From NCBI RefSeq assembly GCF_013122565.1, contig NZ_CP053258.1: 64,000 bases of DNA. The stretch is one strand, 5' to 3'. Position 1 is the stretch's first letter, and each line of letters begins with the position of its first letter. Source of the stretch: Escherichia coli. GTDB taxonomy: Bacteria > Pseudomonadota > Gammaproteobacteria > Enterobacterales > Enterobacteriaceae. The translations under genes and the position numbers were made by a program. Below are positions 7,166-24,012 of the stretch, in pieces. The notes under the pieces were generated by a model, which saw nothing but the letters and a program-made list of their open reading frames with translations, made no database searches and was not told where the DNA came from.

Positions 7166-9520
7166 CTATTTTGCAGTCACAACCTGCATGCCAGACGGTT
7201 CATTTTGCAGCGCCAGAGTCAGAACTTCCTCAATGCGCTTCACAGGATGAATGTCCAGATCGGCAATTACGTTGTCAGGAATCTCTTCCAGATCGCGTTT
7301 ATTTTCGAACGGAATTAACACTGTTTTAATCCCGCCGCGATGCGCTGCCAGTAGTTTTTCTTTCAAACCACCGATCGGCAGTACCTGACCACGCAGAGTG
7401 ATCTCACCGGTCATTGCCACATCGGCACGAACCGGGTTACCGGTCAGGCAAGAAACCAGCGCGGTGCACATAGCAATACCAGCACTCGGACCATCTTTCG
7501 GCGTCGCACCTTCCGGTACGTGGACGTGGATGTCGCGTTTTTCGTAAAAATCAGGGTTGATCCCCAGTTTTTCCGCACGCGCACGAACCACCGTTAATGC
7601 CGCCTGAATGGACTCCTGCATCACTTCGCCGAGCGAACCGGTATAGGTCAATTTGCCTTTCCCCGGAACACATGCGGTTTCAATGGTCAGCAAGTCACCG
7701 CCCACTTCAGTCCACGCCAGACCGGTTACCTGACCGACACGGTTTTCGTTATCCGCGCGTCCATAGTCAAAACGCTGAACACCAAGGTAGTCATGCAGGT
7801 TGTCGCCGTTAATTTCGATATGTTTTAATGACTTATCGAGCAGTAACTGCTTAACCGCTTTACGGCACAGCTTGGAGATTTCACGCTCCAGACCACGCAC
7901 GCCCGCCTCACGGGTGTAGTAACGAATAATGCCGATAATGGCGCTATCGTCGACGGTCAGCTCACCTTTTTTCAGTGCATTACGTTCAATCTGCTTCGGC
8001 AGCAGGTGACGTTTGGCGATGTTCAGTTTTTCATCTTCGGTATAACCGGAGAGGCGAATCACTTCCATACGATCCAGCAGCGGTGCCGGAATGTTCATGG
8101 AGTTCGACGTCGCGACAAACATCACGTCGCTGAGATCGTAATCCACTTCCAGGTAGTGGTCGCTGAACGCTACGTTCTGCTCGGGATCCAGCACTTCAAG
8201 CAGTGCAGAGGCCGGATCGCCTCGCATGTCAGAAGACATTTTGTCGATCTCATCGAGCAGGAACAGAGGGTTTTTCACGCCCACTTTCGCCATTTTCTGG
8301 ATCAGTTTACCCGGCATAGAACCGATGTAAGTACGGCGGTGACCACGGATTTCCGCTTCATCACGCACGCCGCCCAGCGCCATACGGACATATTTACGCC
8401 CGGTGGCTTTGGCAATGGACTGACCCAGGGAGGTTTTACCTACCCCCGGCGGCCCAACCAGGCAGAGGATCGGTCCCTTGATTTTGTTGACACGGCTTTG
8501 AACCGCAAGGTACTCAAGGATGCGATCTTTCACGCGCTCCAGACCATAATGGTCGGTATCAAGGATTTCCTGCGCCTGACGCAGGTCTTTTTTGACCTTG
8601 CTACGCGCATTCCACGGCACCTGAACCATCCAGTCGATATAACCACGCACTACGGTCGCTTCTGCCGACATCGGAGACATCATTTTCAGCTTCTGCAACT
8701 CTGCTTCCGCTTTCTCTTTTGCCTCTTTCGGCATTTTCGCCGCATCGATTTTGCGCTTCAGGGCTTCGTTTTCGTCCGGCGCGTCATCCATTTCACCGAG
8801 TTCTTTCTGAATAGCTTTCATTTGCTCATTCAGATAGTACTCACGCTGGGATTTCTCCATCTGCTTTTTAACGCGGTTGCGAATGCGTTTCTCAACCTGC
8901 AGCAGATCGATTTCCGATTCCATCATTGCCATCAGATATTCCAGACGTTCGTTAACGTCGGACATCTCCAGAACGGACTGTTTGTCAGCCAGTTTCAGCG
9001 GCATATGTGCAGCAATGGTATCCGCCAGACGCGCCGGATCGTCGATGCTATTCAGCGACGTCAGCACTTCTGGTGGGATCTTTTTGTTCAGCTTGATGTA
9101 GCCTTCGAACTGGCTGATTGCAGTACGCACCAGCACTTCCTGTTCCCGCTCATCAATGGTCGGCGACTCCAGATACTCCGCCTTCGCAGAAAAGTGTTCG
9201 CCATTGTCAGAGAGCGCAGAAATACGCGCGCGCTGTAACCCCTCGACCAGCACTTTGACGGTGCCGTCAGGCAGTTTCAGCATCTGCAATATAGAGGCCA
9301 CGGTCCCGACGGTGAAAAGATCGTTTACACCCGGCTCATCCGTTGAAGCTTCTTTCTGCGCGACCAGCATAATTTTTTTATCATGGTCCATCGCCGCTTC
9401 CAGACAACGGATAGATTTTTCCCGCCCGACAAATAAGGGGATGACCATGTGCGGATAAACCACCACATCGCGCAGCGGCAATACGGGGATTTCAATGCGT
9501 TCAGAACGCTCAGGATTCAT
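7166..9520 (-). CDS. lon: ATP-dependent Lon protease
   Basis: 784-aa product from [33 protein letters not shown] track start at 9565 is 15 codons upstream of the K-12 start. Confidence 0.95.
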
Positions 9521-20702: not shown

Positions 20703-21593
20703 ATGATGTTTAAGCAATACCTGCAAGTAACGAAACCAGGCATCATCTTTGGCAACCTGATCTCGGTGATTGGGGGATTCCTACTGGCCTCAAAGGGCAG
20801 CATTGATTATCCCCTGTTTATCTACACGCTGGTTGGGGTGTCACTGGTTGTGGCGTCGGGTTGTGTGTTTAACAACTACATCGACAGGGATATCGACAGA
20901 AAGATGGAAAGGACGAAGAATCGGGTGCTGGTTAAAGGCCTGATCTCTCCTGCTGTCTCGCTGGTGTACGCCACCTTGCTGGGTATTGCTGGCTTTATGC
21001 TGCTGTGGTTTGGCGCGAATCCGCTGGCCTGCTGGCTGGGGGTGATGGGCTTTGTGGTTTATGTCGGTGTTTATAGCCTGTACATGAAACGCCACTCGGT
21101 CTACGGCACATTGATTGGTTCGCTCTCAGGCGCTGCGCCGCCGGTGATTGGCTACTGTGCGGTAACCGGCGAGTTCGATAGCGGCGCAGCGATCCTGCTG
21201 GCTATCTTCAGCCTGTGGCAGATGCCTCACTCCTATGCCATCGCCATTTTCCGCTTTAAGGATTACCAGGCGGCAAACATTCCGGTACTGCCGGTGGTAA
21301 AAGGCATTTCGGTGGCGAAGAATCACATCACGCTGTATATCATCGCCTTTGCCGTTGCCACGCTGATGCTCTCTCTTGGCGGTTACGCTGGGTATAAATA
21401 TCTGGTGGTCGCCGCGGCGGTGAGCGTCTGGTGGTTAGGTATGGCCCTGCGCGGTTATAAAGTTGCTGATGATCGAATCTGGGCGCGCAAGCTGTTCGGC
21501 TTCTCTATCATCGCCATCACTGCCCTCTCGGTGATGATGTCCGTTGATTTTATGGTGCCGGACTCGCATACGCTGCTGGCTGCTGTGTGGTAA
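20703..21593 (+). CDS. cyoE: Protoheme IX farnesyltransferase (heme O synthase)
   Basis: 296-aa product from [22 protein letters not shown] track start is 15 codons upstream. Confidence 0.95.
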
Positions 21594-21608
21594 CACAACC
21601 TCTCTATT

Positions 21609-21636
21609 AAAAAGGTGCTACGGCACCTTTTTTATT
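21609..21636 (+). terminator. Rho-independent terminator of the cyo operon
   Basis: aaaaAGGTGCtacgGCACCTtttttatt: GC stem, 4-nt loop, T-run. Confidence 0.7.
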
Positions 21637-21646
21637 GTCTGAGATC

Positions 21647-21724
21647 AGAGATACGGCTAATAACCGTATCTCTTGACAGAGTGAGCAGATGCACATAAAT
21701 TAATCATACGGTTGATAGCCGTAT
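21647..21724 (+). promoter_or_regulatory. Promoter with two ATACGG-N7-CCGTAT palindromes, candidate operators of the antitoxin-toxin operon
   Basis: Palindrome 1 at 21647-21673 (agagATACGGctaataaCCGTATctct), TTGACA -35 at 21673-21678, TAAATT -10-like at 21696-21701, palindrome 2 at 21706-21724 (ATACGGttgatagCCGTAT). Confidence 0.55.
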
Positions 21725-21777
21725 TATGTATGAGATCGACTCCCTACGATTTCATTCAGTTAATCAAAGAGGTCACA

Positions 21778-22089
21778 ATGCCTGGAAAAACAGCCACTCT
21801 ACCCGATGTCGATAAAACGCTGAAAAATGCGCGGGTTGAACTCAAAACCAGTCCCGACGCCAAAAACAGACTTCGTGAAGCTGCGCAAGCCGTTGGGTTA
21901 GATTTAAGCGCCTTTATTTTGAGCGCTGCTATGGAACGCGCCGAAAGCGTGCTTGATAACCAACGTCGCCGTGAGCTTTCGAATCAAAGCTGGGAACTGA
22001 TGAACCAACTCATCGCCGAACCTGCTCAACCGACGCTCGCACTCAAGGCGTTAATGAAAAGGAAAAACAGCGATGGTCGACAAGCATGA
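21778..22089 (+). CDS. DUF1778 (RHH-fold) antitoxin of a GNAT-toxin type II TA module (TacA/AtaR-like)
   Basis: About 103 aa from MPGKTATLPD with AAGAGG RBS 7 nt upstream; motif LSAFILSAAMERAESVL typical of DUF1778 antitoxins; 17-nt overlap with the downstream toxin; absent from this junction in K-12. Confidence 0.75.
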   Translation: MPGKTATLPDVDKTLKNARVELKTSPDAKNRLREAAQAVGLDLSAFILSAAMERAESVLDNQRRRELSNQSWELMNQLIAEPAQPTLALKALMKRKNSDGRQA

Positions 22090-22615
22090 AGAGATTACTC
22101 TGCCCATAGTCCTCTCCTGTAATTATCAGTCTGATATTACTTATCCTGGGCAAAAACAGTTTGATTGCGGTAACCCTGTTATCGATAAATTTGTACGCAC
22201 ATCGCTAAAGAAAAGTGTGCGTAATAGCGACTGTGCGGCTAAAGCACTTATTGACAGACAAAGTGGTGAACTGATTGGCATCTGTACTTTTACGGCATAT
22301 TCGCTGGAAAAACAACGCGTTTCTGGCGTCCTTCAGGGTTCACAGCCTTCAGAGATTGGTGTTGTCAGATTAGTCATGTTGGGGGTGGCGCGGAAGTATC
22401 AAAAGCGGGGCTTTGGTCAGGACCTACTATGTGATTTTTTTGAACATGTAAAAATAATTCACCAGGCATTACCAATTAAAGGGGTTTATCTTGATGCTGA
22501 CCCTGCCGCCATTAACTTTTATGCTCGTCTCGGCTTTGTTCAGCTTTCAGCGACACCAAATGCTTTTGGTGCTGTACCTATGTTTTTGGCGATTCAGCAT
22601 ATTCTCGCGGCTTAG
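22073..22615 (+). CDS. GNAT-family acetyltransferase toxin (TacT/AtaT/ItaT-like, probable aminoacyl-tRNA acetylating)
   Basis: 180 aa; acetyl-CoA-binding motif VRLVMLGVARKYQKRGFGQDLL and C-terminal FYARLGF; operonic with the DUF1778 antitoxin. Confidence 0.75.
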   Translation: MVDKHEEITLPIVLSCNYQSDITYPGQKQFDCGNPVIDKFVRTSLKKSVRNSDCAAKALIDRQSGELIGICTFTAYSLEKQRVSGVLQGSQPSEIGVVRLVMLGVARKYQKRGFGQDLLCDFFEHVKIIHQALPIKGVYLDADPAAINFYARLGFVQLSATPNAFGAVPMFLAIQHILAA

Positions 22616-22629
22616 ATTATTATCGCCAC

Positions 22630-22668
22630 CCGCCAGGGCAAGTCTTGCCTCAGCCGGGGGCTGAGTAG
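22630..22668. terminator. Hairpin between the convergent toxin and Sel1-repeat genes, putative bidirectional terminator
   Basis: CTCAGCCgggGGCTGAG inverted repeat at 22649-22665. Confidence 0.45.
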
Positions 22669-22670
22669 CG

Positions 22671-23606
22671 TTACCACTTTTGTTCAATTGCCCCCGCTTT
22701 CAGCAACTCCACATCCTTGCCGTTAATGGTTGCCGTTGCGGCAACGATTGTGGTCCTTACAGTTGCACAAGATTTTCGCTCAAATTCCGGTTTATAAAGA
22801 ATTAGAGACGAATTACTGGTAAATGAATCAAATATGTAATCAGTAAAGCTAATATTCAGCCGGTTTAAACCGAAAGGCGCGAAGCCAACCGTTTGGTTAA
22901 TCTCTTTACCGGATGGGCTACGAATGCTGAATGTCACGCGAAGATTGGCCACTTCGCCTAATTTATTGGTGGTGACGAAGAGGCTATCCATGCAGGAAAA
23001 ACCTTTATCTAAAAAATTATCCCGCATCCCAGAACGGGTAACCGTGATCACGGGTAATGTATCGTCAACCGTTTTTCTGTCAATCATGTCTTTTCGACAT
23101 GTAGCCAGAAAGTCTTCCGGACCACCATAAATGTGGACACCTTTATCAAGATATTCCTTCGCTTTCTTACAATCTACCTCAACATACTGACCATTGGCGT
23201 ACATCATGCCCAACCTGGACCATGCTAAATTCACACCGTATTGCGCGGCCTGATTAAATAGTGCATACGCTTTGGCATAATCCACCCGCACCAGCTCACC
23301 GTCGTAGTAGATACTCCCCAGCGCTAACGGAGCTTCTCTGTCACCGTGTTTAGCGGCTAACTCGAACCATTTAATCGCTTCCTGAACATCAGGTTTGGTA
23401 TCATAACGAGGCTGATAATATTCCCAGCCTAACAGGCTCTGCGCGTCGACATCTCCCAATTCAGCCATTTTATGCAGTGTATTTATAACATCGGGCGCAG
23501 GTTGACCACCATATATGCTGTCATACAATTCATGAGCTTTCTCGCTTGCCACCACGCCTGGTGAAACTATTAGCATTAAAGAAAATAATATTCTTTTAGT
23601 TAACAT
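22671..23606 (-). CDS. Secreted Sel1-repeat (TPR-like) protein with uncharacterised beta-rich C-terminal domain
   Basis: Likely start at internal Met giving MLTKRILFSLMLIVSPGVVA signal peptide; about three Sel1 repeats (LGWEYY, LGSIYYDG, LGMMYANG); AT-rich; absent from this junction in K-12. Confidence 0.7.
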   Translation of the reverse strand: MLTKRILFSLMLIVSPGVVASEKAHELYDSIYGGQPAPDVINTLHKMAELGDVDAQSLLGWEYYQPRYDTKPDVQEAIKWFELAAKHGDREAPLALGSIYYDGELVRVDYAKAYALFNQAAQYGVNLAWSRLGMMYANGQYVEVDCKKAKEYLDKGVHIYGGPEDFLATCRKDMIDRKTVDDTLPVITVTRSGMRDNFLDKGFSCMDSLFVTTNKLGEVANLRVTFSIRSPSGKEINQTVGFAPFGLNRLNISFTDYIFDSFTSNSSLILYKPEFERKSCATVRTTIVAATATINGKDVELLKAGAIEQKW

Positions 23607-24012
23607 GTATACCTTTATGTCCTCACTGTCATATATTTCCATAATAATTAACCACCAAGCATCCATTTAATGAATAAATACAGTGCCATAAATGCCCAAG
23701 TAATAAGCACACATTTAGCCTGAAACATTATCATCCATGTCACCAAATCGTTTATTTAGTAAGATAAAACTAGCATATTCGTAAGATAAAAAATGCACAT
23801 GGTAATCAAGAAATGATATTATTATTTTTTTGATGTAAAACTATTTAGCTTTAAAATTCATTTTTTCAACATATAGAGCATTCATTTTATGAATGCAAAA
23901 AACATACCTGACACACAAATTATTCTCCTCTGTAATATTTTCTCATTAACACTCTGTTTACCCAACATGCGCTCCGCACTACACTATGTGGGCATTTTTT
24001 TAAGAGGTGGTA

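Follow-up and report, generated by a model that had tools for sequence, protein, structure and literature searches.

Two palindromes flanking the itaRT promoter of Escherichia coli as probable twin operators of a GNAT-RHH toxin-antitoxin system

Two palindromes of the form ATACGG-N7-CCGTAT, termed O1 and O2, flank the promoter hexamers TTGACA and TAAATT of the itaRT toxin-antitoxin operon in the analysed window, a stretch of E. coli DNA of 64,000 nucleotides (64 kb). Judged from sequence comparison, both are very probably operators of the itaRT promoter. Direct observations were the sites themselves, their placement relative to the promoter hexamers, their conservation and their match to a structurally defined operator. 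The best reading, made by analogy with characterised relatives, is that each palindrome would be one complete operator for one ItaT-ItaR2-ItaR2-ItaT complex. Each palindrome was read as a whole operator because its core and spacing are identical to those of the KacAT crystal DNA and because kacAT and ataRT carry single palindromes.

Results

Identity of the operon and its proteins

The features of the locus are listed in Table 1. The antitoxin and toxin genes overlap by 17 nt. The antitoxin matched Pfam TacA1 PF08681 (DUF1778) with E=2.3e-17 over residues 19-96, and its matches in the PDB were KacA (5ZGN_A, E=3.5e-11) and AtaR (E=8.4e-9). Its N-terminal ribbon-helix-helix (RHH) comprises the beta-strand N17-K23 with the residues R19, E21 and K23, which were invariant or at least 90% conserved among 25 homologues. 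The toxin was 99% identical to PDB entry 7BYY, which is ItaT(G115D) of E. coli HS (Zhang et al. 2020, PMC7367177). As it differed from 7BYY at only 2 of 180 residues, the engineered G115D and residue 43, the locus was identified as the published itaRT module. Residue 43 (window 22199-22201) is Thr here and Ala in the E. coli HS-derived 7BYY. No structure of ItaR and none of an ItaRT-DNA complex was found by the PDB search.

The listed antitoxin ORF opens at the in-frame TTG 21712; the Shine-Dalgarno sequence AAAGAGG points to ATG 21778. This sequence and the homologues, in which a GAGAGGT-N4-6-ATG motif is kept, favour ATG 21778 as the itaR start. The resulting ItaR of 103 aa agrees with the 11.4 kDa reported for ItaRT of E. 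coli HS. The upstream in-frame starts TTG 21712 and ATG 21730 have led to over-long public annotations of 125, 119 and 120 aa (P0003, P0005 and P0009).

Table 1. Features of the itaRT locus in window coordinates. Identity is the mean pairwise identity over the window and 13 two-palindrome loci.
Feature	Position	Strand	Basis	Identity
cyoE (cyo operon) intrinsic terminator hairpin	21609-21632	+	terminator scan; T-run ends at 21633	
O1, ATACGG-CTAATAA-CCGTAT	21651-21669	.	sequence read, pattern search	1.00 (arms)
-35 hexamer, TTGACA	21673-21678	+	promoter scan; TTGACN kept in all homologous loci	0.89
17-bp promoter spacer				0.30, random level
-10 hexamer, TAAATT	21696-21701	+	promoter scan; TAnnnT at exact 17-bp spacing in homologues	0.75
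O2, ATACGG-TTGATAG-CCGTAT	21706-21724, core 21707-21723	.	sequence read, pattern search	0.96 (arms)
Palindrome centres				0.63-0.68
Shine-Dalgarno sequence of itaR, AAAGAGG	21766-21772	+	sequence read; 5 nt before ATG	
itaR, antitoxin, 103 aa	21778-22089	+	Pfam TacA1 PF08681, PDB KacA match	
itaT, GNAT acetyltransferase toxin, 180 aa	22073-22615	+	GNAT Pfam domains, 7BYY match	
Sel1-repeat gene, 331 aa, convergent to itaRT	22671-23666	-	island content	

A genomic island carrying its own promoter

The operon lies on an island of about 2.3 kb (window 21634-23926) between the cyoE terminator and yajR. In a base-by-base comparison, an island-free genome was identical up to 21633, diverged from 21634 and regained similarity near 23926, directly past which yajR is located. 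When positions 21560-22700 were used as the query, the match to island-free genomes stopped at query position 74-77. The island replaces about 25-30 bp of K-12-type intergenic sequence. It was also present at the same site in a Pseudocitrobacter MAG. The itaRT module was found in about 1,370 of 5,426 complete E. coli genomes (about 25%), including B-strain derivatives such as NEBExpress.

O1 sits 13-17 bp inside the left island junction. Since the promoter and both palindromes are inside the island, the itaRT operon brings its own promoter. The preliminary description had proposed such a promoter immediately after the cyo terminator; the island boundary at 21634 and the published promoter activity described below support it. 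The genome comparison showed that the promoter-operator cassette moves with the toxin-antitoxin genes as part of the island.

Palindromes and promoter architecture

A pattern search with up to one mismatch allowed found exactly two ATACGG-N7-CCGTAT sites in the 64-kb window, O1 and O2, which are separated by 55 bp. About 0.10 sites per 64 kb were expected by chance, and a count of two was reached in 0 of 100 dinucleotide-preserving shuffles of the window. A chance origin of the pair was ruled out by the two exact sites against 0.1 expected, together with their conservation in homologues. The claim that two such palindromes are present was thereby upheld.

The only sigma-70-like site in 21400-22800 combined TTGACA and TAAATT over a 17-bp spacer and matched the consensus at 10 of 12 positions in the promoter scan. 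O1 ends 3-4 bp before the -35 hexamer, and its centre lies about 48 bp upstream of the predicted transcription start. O2 begins 4 nt past the -10 hexamer, and the predicted start at about 21707-21709 falls within it. In its extended form with 10-bp arms, palindrome 1 reads AGAGATACGG-CTAATAA-CCGTATCTCT (21647-21673), and the last T of the extended arm is also the first T of TTGACA. The description of palindrome 1 as abutting the -35 hexamer and of palindrome 2 as lying just downstream of the -10 hexamer was thus accurate, given the promoter scan, the shared T and the 4-nt gap.

O1 is the longer and more perfect palindrome of the two in the window, and its core of the conserved type, TACGG-N7-CCGTA, covers 21652-21668. 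In E. coli B (NEBExpress), which reads CCGTATGTCT, palindrome 1 lacks an intact outer AGAG/CTCT extension. As they are unconserved even within E. coli, the 10-bp extended arms were placed outside the functional definition. In the left arm of O2 (window 21707), CACGG replaces TACGG in E. coli SWHEFF_69 and CRECJHTL34. CRECJHTL34 also has a frameshift annotated in the adjacent Sel1/TPR gene.

A direct repeat, TGTCTGAGATC / TGTATGAGATC, at 21636-21646 and 21727-21737 with a spacing of 91 bp, flanks the cassette of O1, promoter and O2. It was considered as a duplication scar and rejected, as an estimated 0.36 such 10-of-11 matches are expected per 300 bp. It was not seen in the more distant homologous loci and is probably a chance match.

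The terminator scan called no plus-strand terminator at O1 or O2. A minus-strand call at O2 was attributed to the palindrome adjoining the A/T-rich -10 hexamer and rejected as an artefact. A scan against Rfam up to E<=1 returned nothing overlapping either palindrome. Sub-threshold Rfam matches elsewhere were STnc40 on the cyoE terminator (20.8 against 45 bits) and potC within itaT.

Published regulation of itaRT

Transcription from the upstream region has been measured for the E. coli HS orthologue, for which toxicity of ItaT, its neutralisation by ItaR and auto-repression of the operon by the complex were reported (Wilcox et al. 2018, PMC6125619). A 172-bp upstream fragment placed before galK raised transcript levels about 40-fold over those of a promoterless control. 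ItaR together with ItaT, either wild-type or catalytically dead, brought the activity of this promoter down to near background, whereas it was unaffected by ItaR alone in vivo (PMC6125619). The fragment is assumed to correspond to window 21595-21767, because its designation as '-183 to -11' makes sense only relative to the start codon. Since ItaR alone does not repress in vivo, the binding species is taken to be the ItaR-ItaT complex, which was reported as apparently stoichiometric (PMC6125619). Silencing by ItaR plus ItaT and its absence with ItaR alone also identify the toxin as an obligatory co-repressor.

The terms 'operator', 'palindrom' and 'footprint' are absent from the text of Wilcox et al. 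(PMC6125619). Operator, promoter hexamers and start site of itaRT are undefined in PMC6125619 and PMC7367177, and no paper defining an itaRT operator was found in the later literature that was searched.

Comparative footprint

Homologues of ItaR with 65-91% identity occur across Enterobacterales. Fourteen homologous loci, 12 genomic and two on plasmids, were compared. They covered at least 10 genera and 63-91% toxin identity to ItaT, and an ItaT homologue was located directly downstream in all 14. Only one locus, that of Pseudocitrobacter, had cyoE as a neighbour. The order TACGG-N7-CCGTA, 4-6 bp, TTGACN, 17 bp, TAnnnT, 4-10 bp, TACGG-N7-CCGTA was found in 13 of the 14 loci, and the O1 equivalent was accordingly positioned 4-6 bp upstream of TTGACN in these 13. 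The remaining locus, L012, kept O2 and had a decayed O1. O2 was therefore conserved in 14/14. Identity was highest in the operator arms, followed by the two hexamers and the palindrome centres, and fell to random level in the promoter spacer (Table 1). At the sequence level, the pattern of O1, -35, -10 and O2 is a classic example of a phylogenetic footprint.

The consensus over 28 operators was TACGG-CT-RWT-AG-CCGTA. The preliminary description had treated the sites as ATACGG half-sites around a free N7 and had included the outer extension of palindrome 1. The TACGG/CCGTA core was retained by the comparison; the AGAG/CTCT extension was not, and the consensus reveals some constraint within the 'N7'. 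In the 155 kb examined, exact TACGG-N7-CCGTA sites numbered 28, each of them at a DUF1778-GNAT promoter.

The start-to-start distance of O1 and O2 ranged from 54 to 61 bp among the loci, with a mode of 57 bp (about 5.4 helical turns) and no conserved helical phase. As the spacing is variable and does not amount to whole turns, it does not speak for a rigid cooperative link between the sites. That the distance stays roughly constant follows from the packing of both sites against a promoter whose geometry is fixed, and not from helical phasing.

The exact pattern TACGGCT-N3-AGCCGTA was present in 87 viral contigs and had a second copy within 100 bp in exactly three. These were exactly the three contigs encoding a DUF1778-GNAT pair. 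In the other 84, the sites were mostly isolated and had no adjacent DUF1778 gene. The pair of sites is thus diagnostic for the toxin-antitoxin genes, and a single site is not. In IMG/VR contig 2636416057_000001 (locus L055), two TACGG palindromes 38 bp apart were found at 7818-7872 with a more distant DUF1778-GNAT pair, whose toxin was 41% identical to ItaT. Here, the same parts are packed in another way, with the centre of the second palindrome supplying the -10 hexamer TATCAT.

A Klebsiella pneumoniae IncFIA plasmid (NZ_CP138732.1, locus L016) carried no TACGG-N7-CCGTA in the 743 bp upstream of the antitoxin gene with two mismatches allowed. Its DUF1778 antitoxin is 53% identical to ItaR and has the similar beta-strand TRVELRTS (RVELR). 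What was observed instead was a AATTTTTTAATAAAAAAATT palindrome ending in the leader at 35 bp from the start codon and, further upstream, CATTTAAATATCAATCA direct repeats.

Five ItaRT homologues had long leaders of about 170-240 nt between O2 and the antitoxin gene, compared with about 54 nt (L002 2788-3000, L004 2791-3000, L009 2801-3000, L015 1332-1500 and L017 1260-1500). These leaders contained an upstream ORF of 16-22 codons with its own Shine-Dalgarno sequence (e.g. MKFTANVFNLNRFRCIF and MSLKKIQNLNNFKGIPFTGKR) and, after it, a second AAGGAG-like motif. The encoded peptides were poorly conserved. From its arrangement, the leader ORF could encode a translation-sensing leader peptide, which, if true, would be of interest for a toxin that blocks aminoacyl-tRNAs.

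Discussion

Relation to characterised operators

The closest structural precedent is the complex KacT-KacA2-KacA2-KacT (5ZGN), which was crystallised with a 27-bp DNA, 5'-AAATGTACGGTTATTAACCGTACATGA (Qian et al. 2019, PMC6698736). The core of this DNA, TACGG-TTATTAA-CCGTA, has the same arms and the same 7-bp A/T-rich spacing as O1 and O2. One RHH dimer reads each arm in the crystal structure, and on GTACGG, KacA contacts the CG/G bases with R8, the C with D10 and the outer G with R12 (PMC6698736). These residues align with R19, E21 and K23 of ItaR, with K for R at the third position. The kacAT and itaRT modules combine the same pair of families, a DUF1778 RHH antitoxin and a GNAT toxin, and in both the toxin is a co-repressor. 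KacA and ItaR are 36% identical, and the toxins KacT and ItaT about 25%. On its own, KacA shows weak DNA binding in vitro, whereas ItaR without its toxin failed to repress in vivo. Conditional cooperativity was demonstrated for kacAT (Qian et al. 2019, PMC6698736).

The native kacAT locus has one palindrome, TACGG-AAAATAA-CCGTA, directly after its -10 hexamer (TATATT-aaatg-TACGGAAAATAACCGTA). It spans the kacAT start site (PMC6698736) and, beginning about 5 nt after the -10 hexamer, occupies the position of O2 of itaRT. The ataRT locus of E. coli O157:H7 likewise has a single palindrome, ATGTACGG-TGACATA-CCGTACAT, between the promoter and ataR and directly after the -10 hexamer (promoter and palindrome sequence: TACGGTGACATACCGTA). 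Its core, TACGG-TGACATA-CCGTA, is of the same type as in itaRT, and its position is equivalent to that of O2. According to published summaries of this system, the heterohexameric repressor AtaT-AtaR4-AtaT binds one palindrome (Jurenas et al. 2019, Yashiro et al. 2019; PMC8138530, PMC6698736). The ataRT operon occupies a chromosomal site other than that of itaRT, between livJ and panM, and ataRT-like loci were present in about 1,845 of 5,426 complete E. coli genomes.

The TACGG-N7-CCGTA core, located at L014 547, L018 447 and window 21652 and 21707, is common to kacAT, ataRT and itaRT, despite antitoxins that are only 32-36% identical. Whereas kacAT and ataRT have one operator each, the itaRT clade has added O1 upstream of the -35 hexamer, so that the two predicted operators set the ItaRT clade apart. 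The classical RHH repressors Arc, CopG and RelB place two dimers on one palindromic site, one on each arm; the site is about 20 bp long and overlaps core promoter elements. In these systems the repressor alone makes the tetramer, whereas in itaRT the tetramer would, by analogy with the KacAT complex, be assembled by the toxin. The itaRT promoter also differs from them in having the whole operator duplicated on either side.

Proposed mechanism of repression

On the model of these relatives, ItaR would dimerise via its N-terminal RHH, and two ItaR dimers and two ItaT monomers would assemble into the ItaT-ItaR2-ItaR2-ItaT complex. Each RHH beta-sheet, with R19, E21 and K23, would read one TACGG arm in the major groove, and one complex would cover one palindrome of 17-19 bp across its A/T-rich centre. 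Occupancy of O1 and O2 would then block binding of RNA polymerase and formation of the open complex, presumably by steric exclusion, given O1 at the -35 hexamer and O2 at the predicted start. Loss of ItaR or an excess of toxin would be expected to cause derepression, as in kacAT and ataRT. Autorepression by an RHH antitoxin-toxin complex acting at the palindromes, as the preliminary description had it, is supported by the ItaRT reporter data, the footprint in 13 of 14 loci and the KacAT core. Two refinements apply: by analogy, each palindrome would be a whole operator for two RHH dimers of one heterohexamer, as opposed to the two palindromes sharing a pair of half-sites, and the cooperativity named in that description is a possibility to which the site spacing lends no support.

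Alternative readings

It is considered improbable, at about the level of an outside chance, that only O2 works as an operator and that O1, without cooperating with O2, adds little to repression as an auxiliary or vestigial copy. Such a division is suggested by kacAT and ataRT, which each rely on one palindrome in the place of O2, by locus L012 without O1 and by the lack of helical phasing between the sites. However, the arms of O1 were 100% identical in 14 loci in the midst of randomised neighbouring DNA, and conservation this strong implies selection on O1. The distance of O1 to the -35 hexamer was moreover always 4-6 bp, in the window O1 exceeds O2 in length and perfection, and the distant viral-contig relative L055 carries two copies as well. 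Some observations weigh against twin operators in general: the L016 relative has a similar beta-strand and lacks the palindrome, some E. coli lineages have CACGG in O2, ItaR is only 36% identical to KacA and K23 stands in place of R12.

A function of the palindromes as RNA hairpins, with O1 stopping read-through from cyo and O2 stabilising or occluding the 5' end of the itaRT mRNA, is very unlikely. Both palindromes can form stems of 6-10 bp, the terminator scan flagged O2 on the minus strand, and the 9-10 nt between the -10 hexamer and O2 in L009 and L017 would allow full transcription of O2 at those loci. However, no plus-strand T-run follows either palindrome, and in most loci the predicted start is within the left arm of O2, which precludes the hairpin at the RNA level. 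In loci whose upstream genes are unrelated, O1 is still placed ahead of the -35 hexamer. The arms are always TACGG without compensatory changes, which is the signature of a site read by protein, no Rfam family matched, and crystallography has defined the identical motif as a site bound by protein. Recognition by another protein of the host or a mobile element, such as an island-edge recombinase or a global regulator, with ItaR binding elsewhere, is scarcely credible. The position of O1 close to the left island junction would fit such a protein, but the pair holds a constant position relative to the -35 and -10 hexamers of the toxin-antitoxin promoter across genera, plasmids and viral contigs with any flanks. 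Paired sites were moreover found only beside DUF1778-GNAT genes, and KacA, a homologous antitoxin, binds this motif.

Biological meaning

The general picture of type II toxin-antitoxin autoregulation is unchanged by these results, which describe ordinary control of a characterised system. Only two points are mildly new, the twin-operator layout and the core common to ItaR, KacA and AtaR. The published ItaRT system gains a concrete and testable operator-promoter map of O1, -35, -10 and O2. One operator core serves three experimentally studied GNAT-RHH toxin-antitoxin families, and the twin-operator variant is kept across Enterobacterales, plasmids and phage-like contigs.

Since the TACGG-N7-CCGTA core is common to antitoxins of about 36% identity (ItaR, KacA and AtaR), cross-regulation is conceivable. 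Loci of the ataRT type and itaRT are both common in complete E. coli genomes, so co-residence and cross-talk between operators are possible. It is a rather doubtful proposition that GNAT-RHH modules in one cell could cross-regulate their promoters and that the duplicated operator of ItaRT may alter its input-output behaviour. The toxins act on different tRNAs, AtaT on Met-tRNAfMet and ItaT on Ile-tRNAIle. The map is useful for the design of reporter, footprint and cross-talk experiments on tRNA-acetylating toxins. In comparison with the single operators of kacAT and ataRT, twin operators may, for instance, make repression tighter, bistable or more like a switch, or let toxin dimers bridge two heterohexamers.
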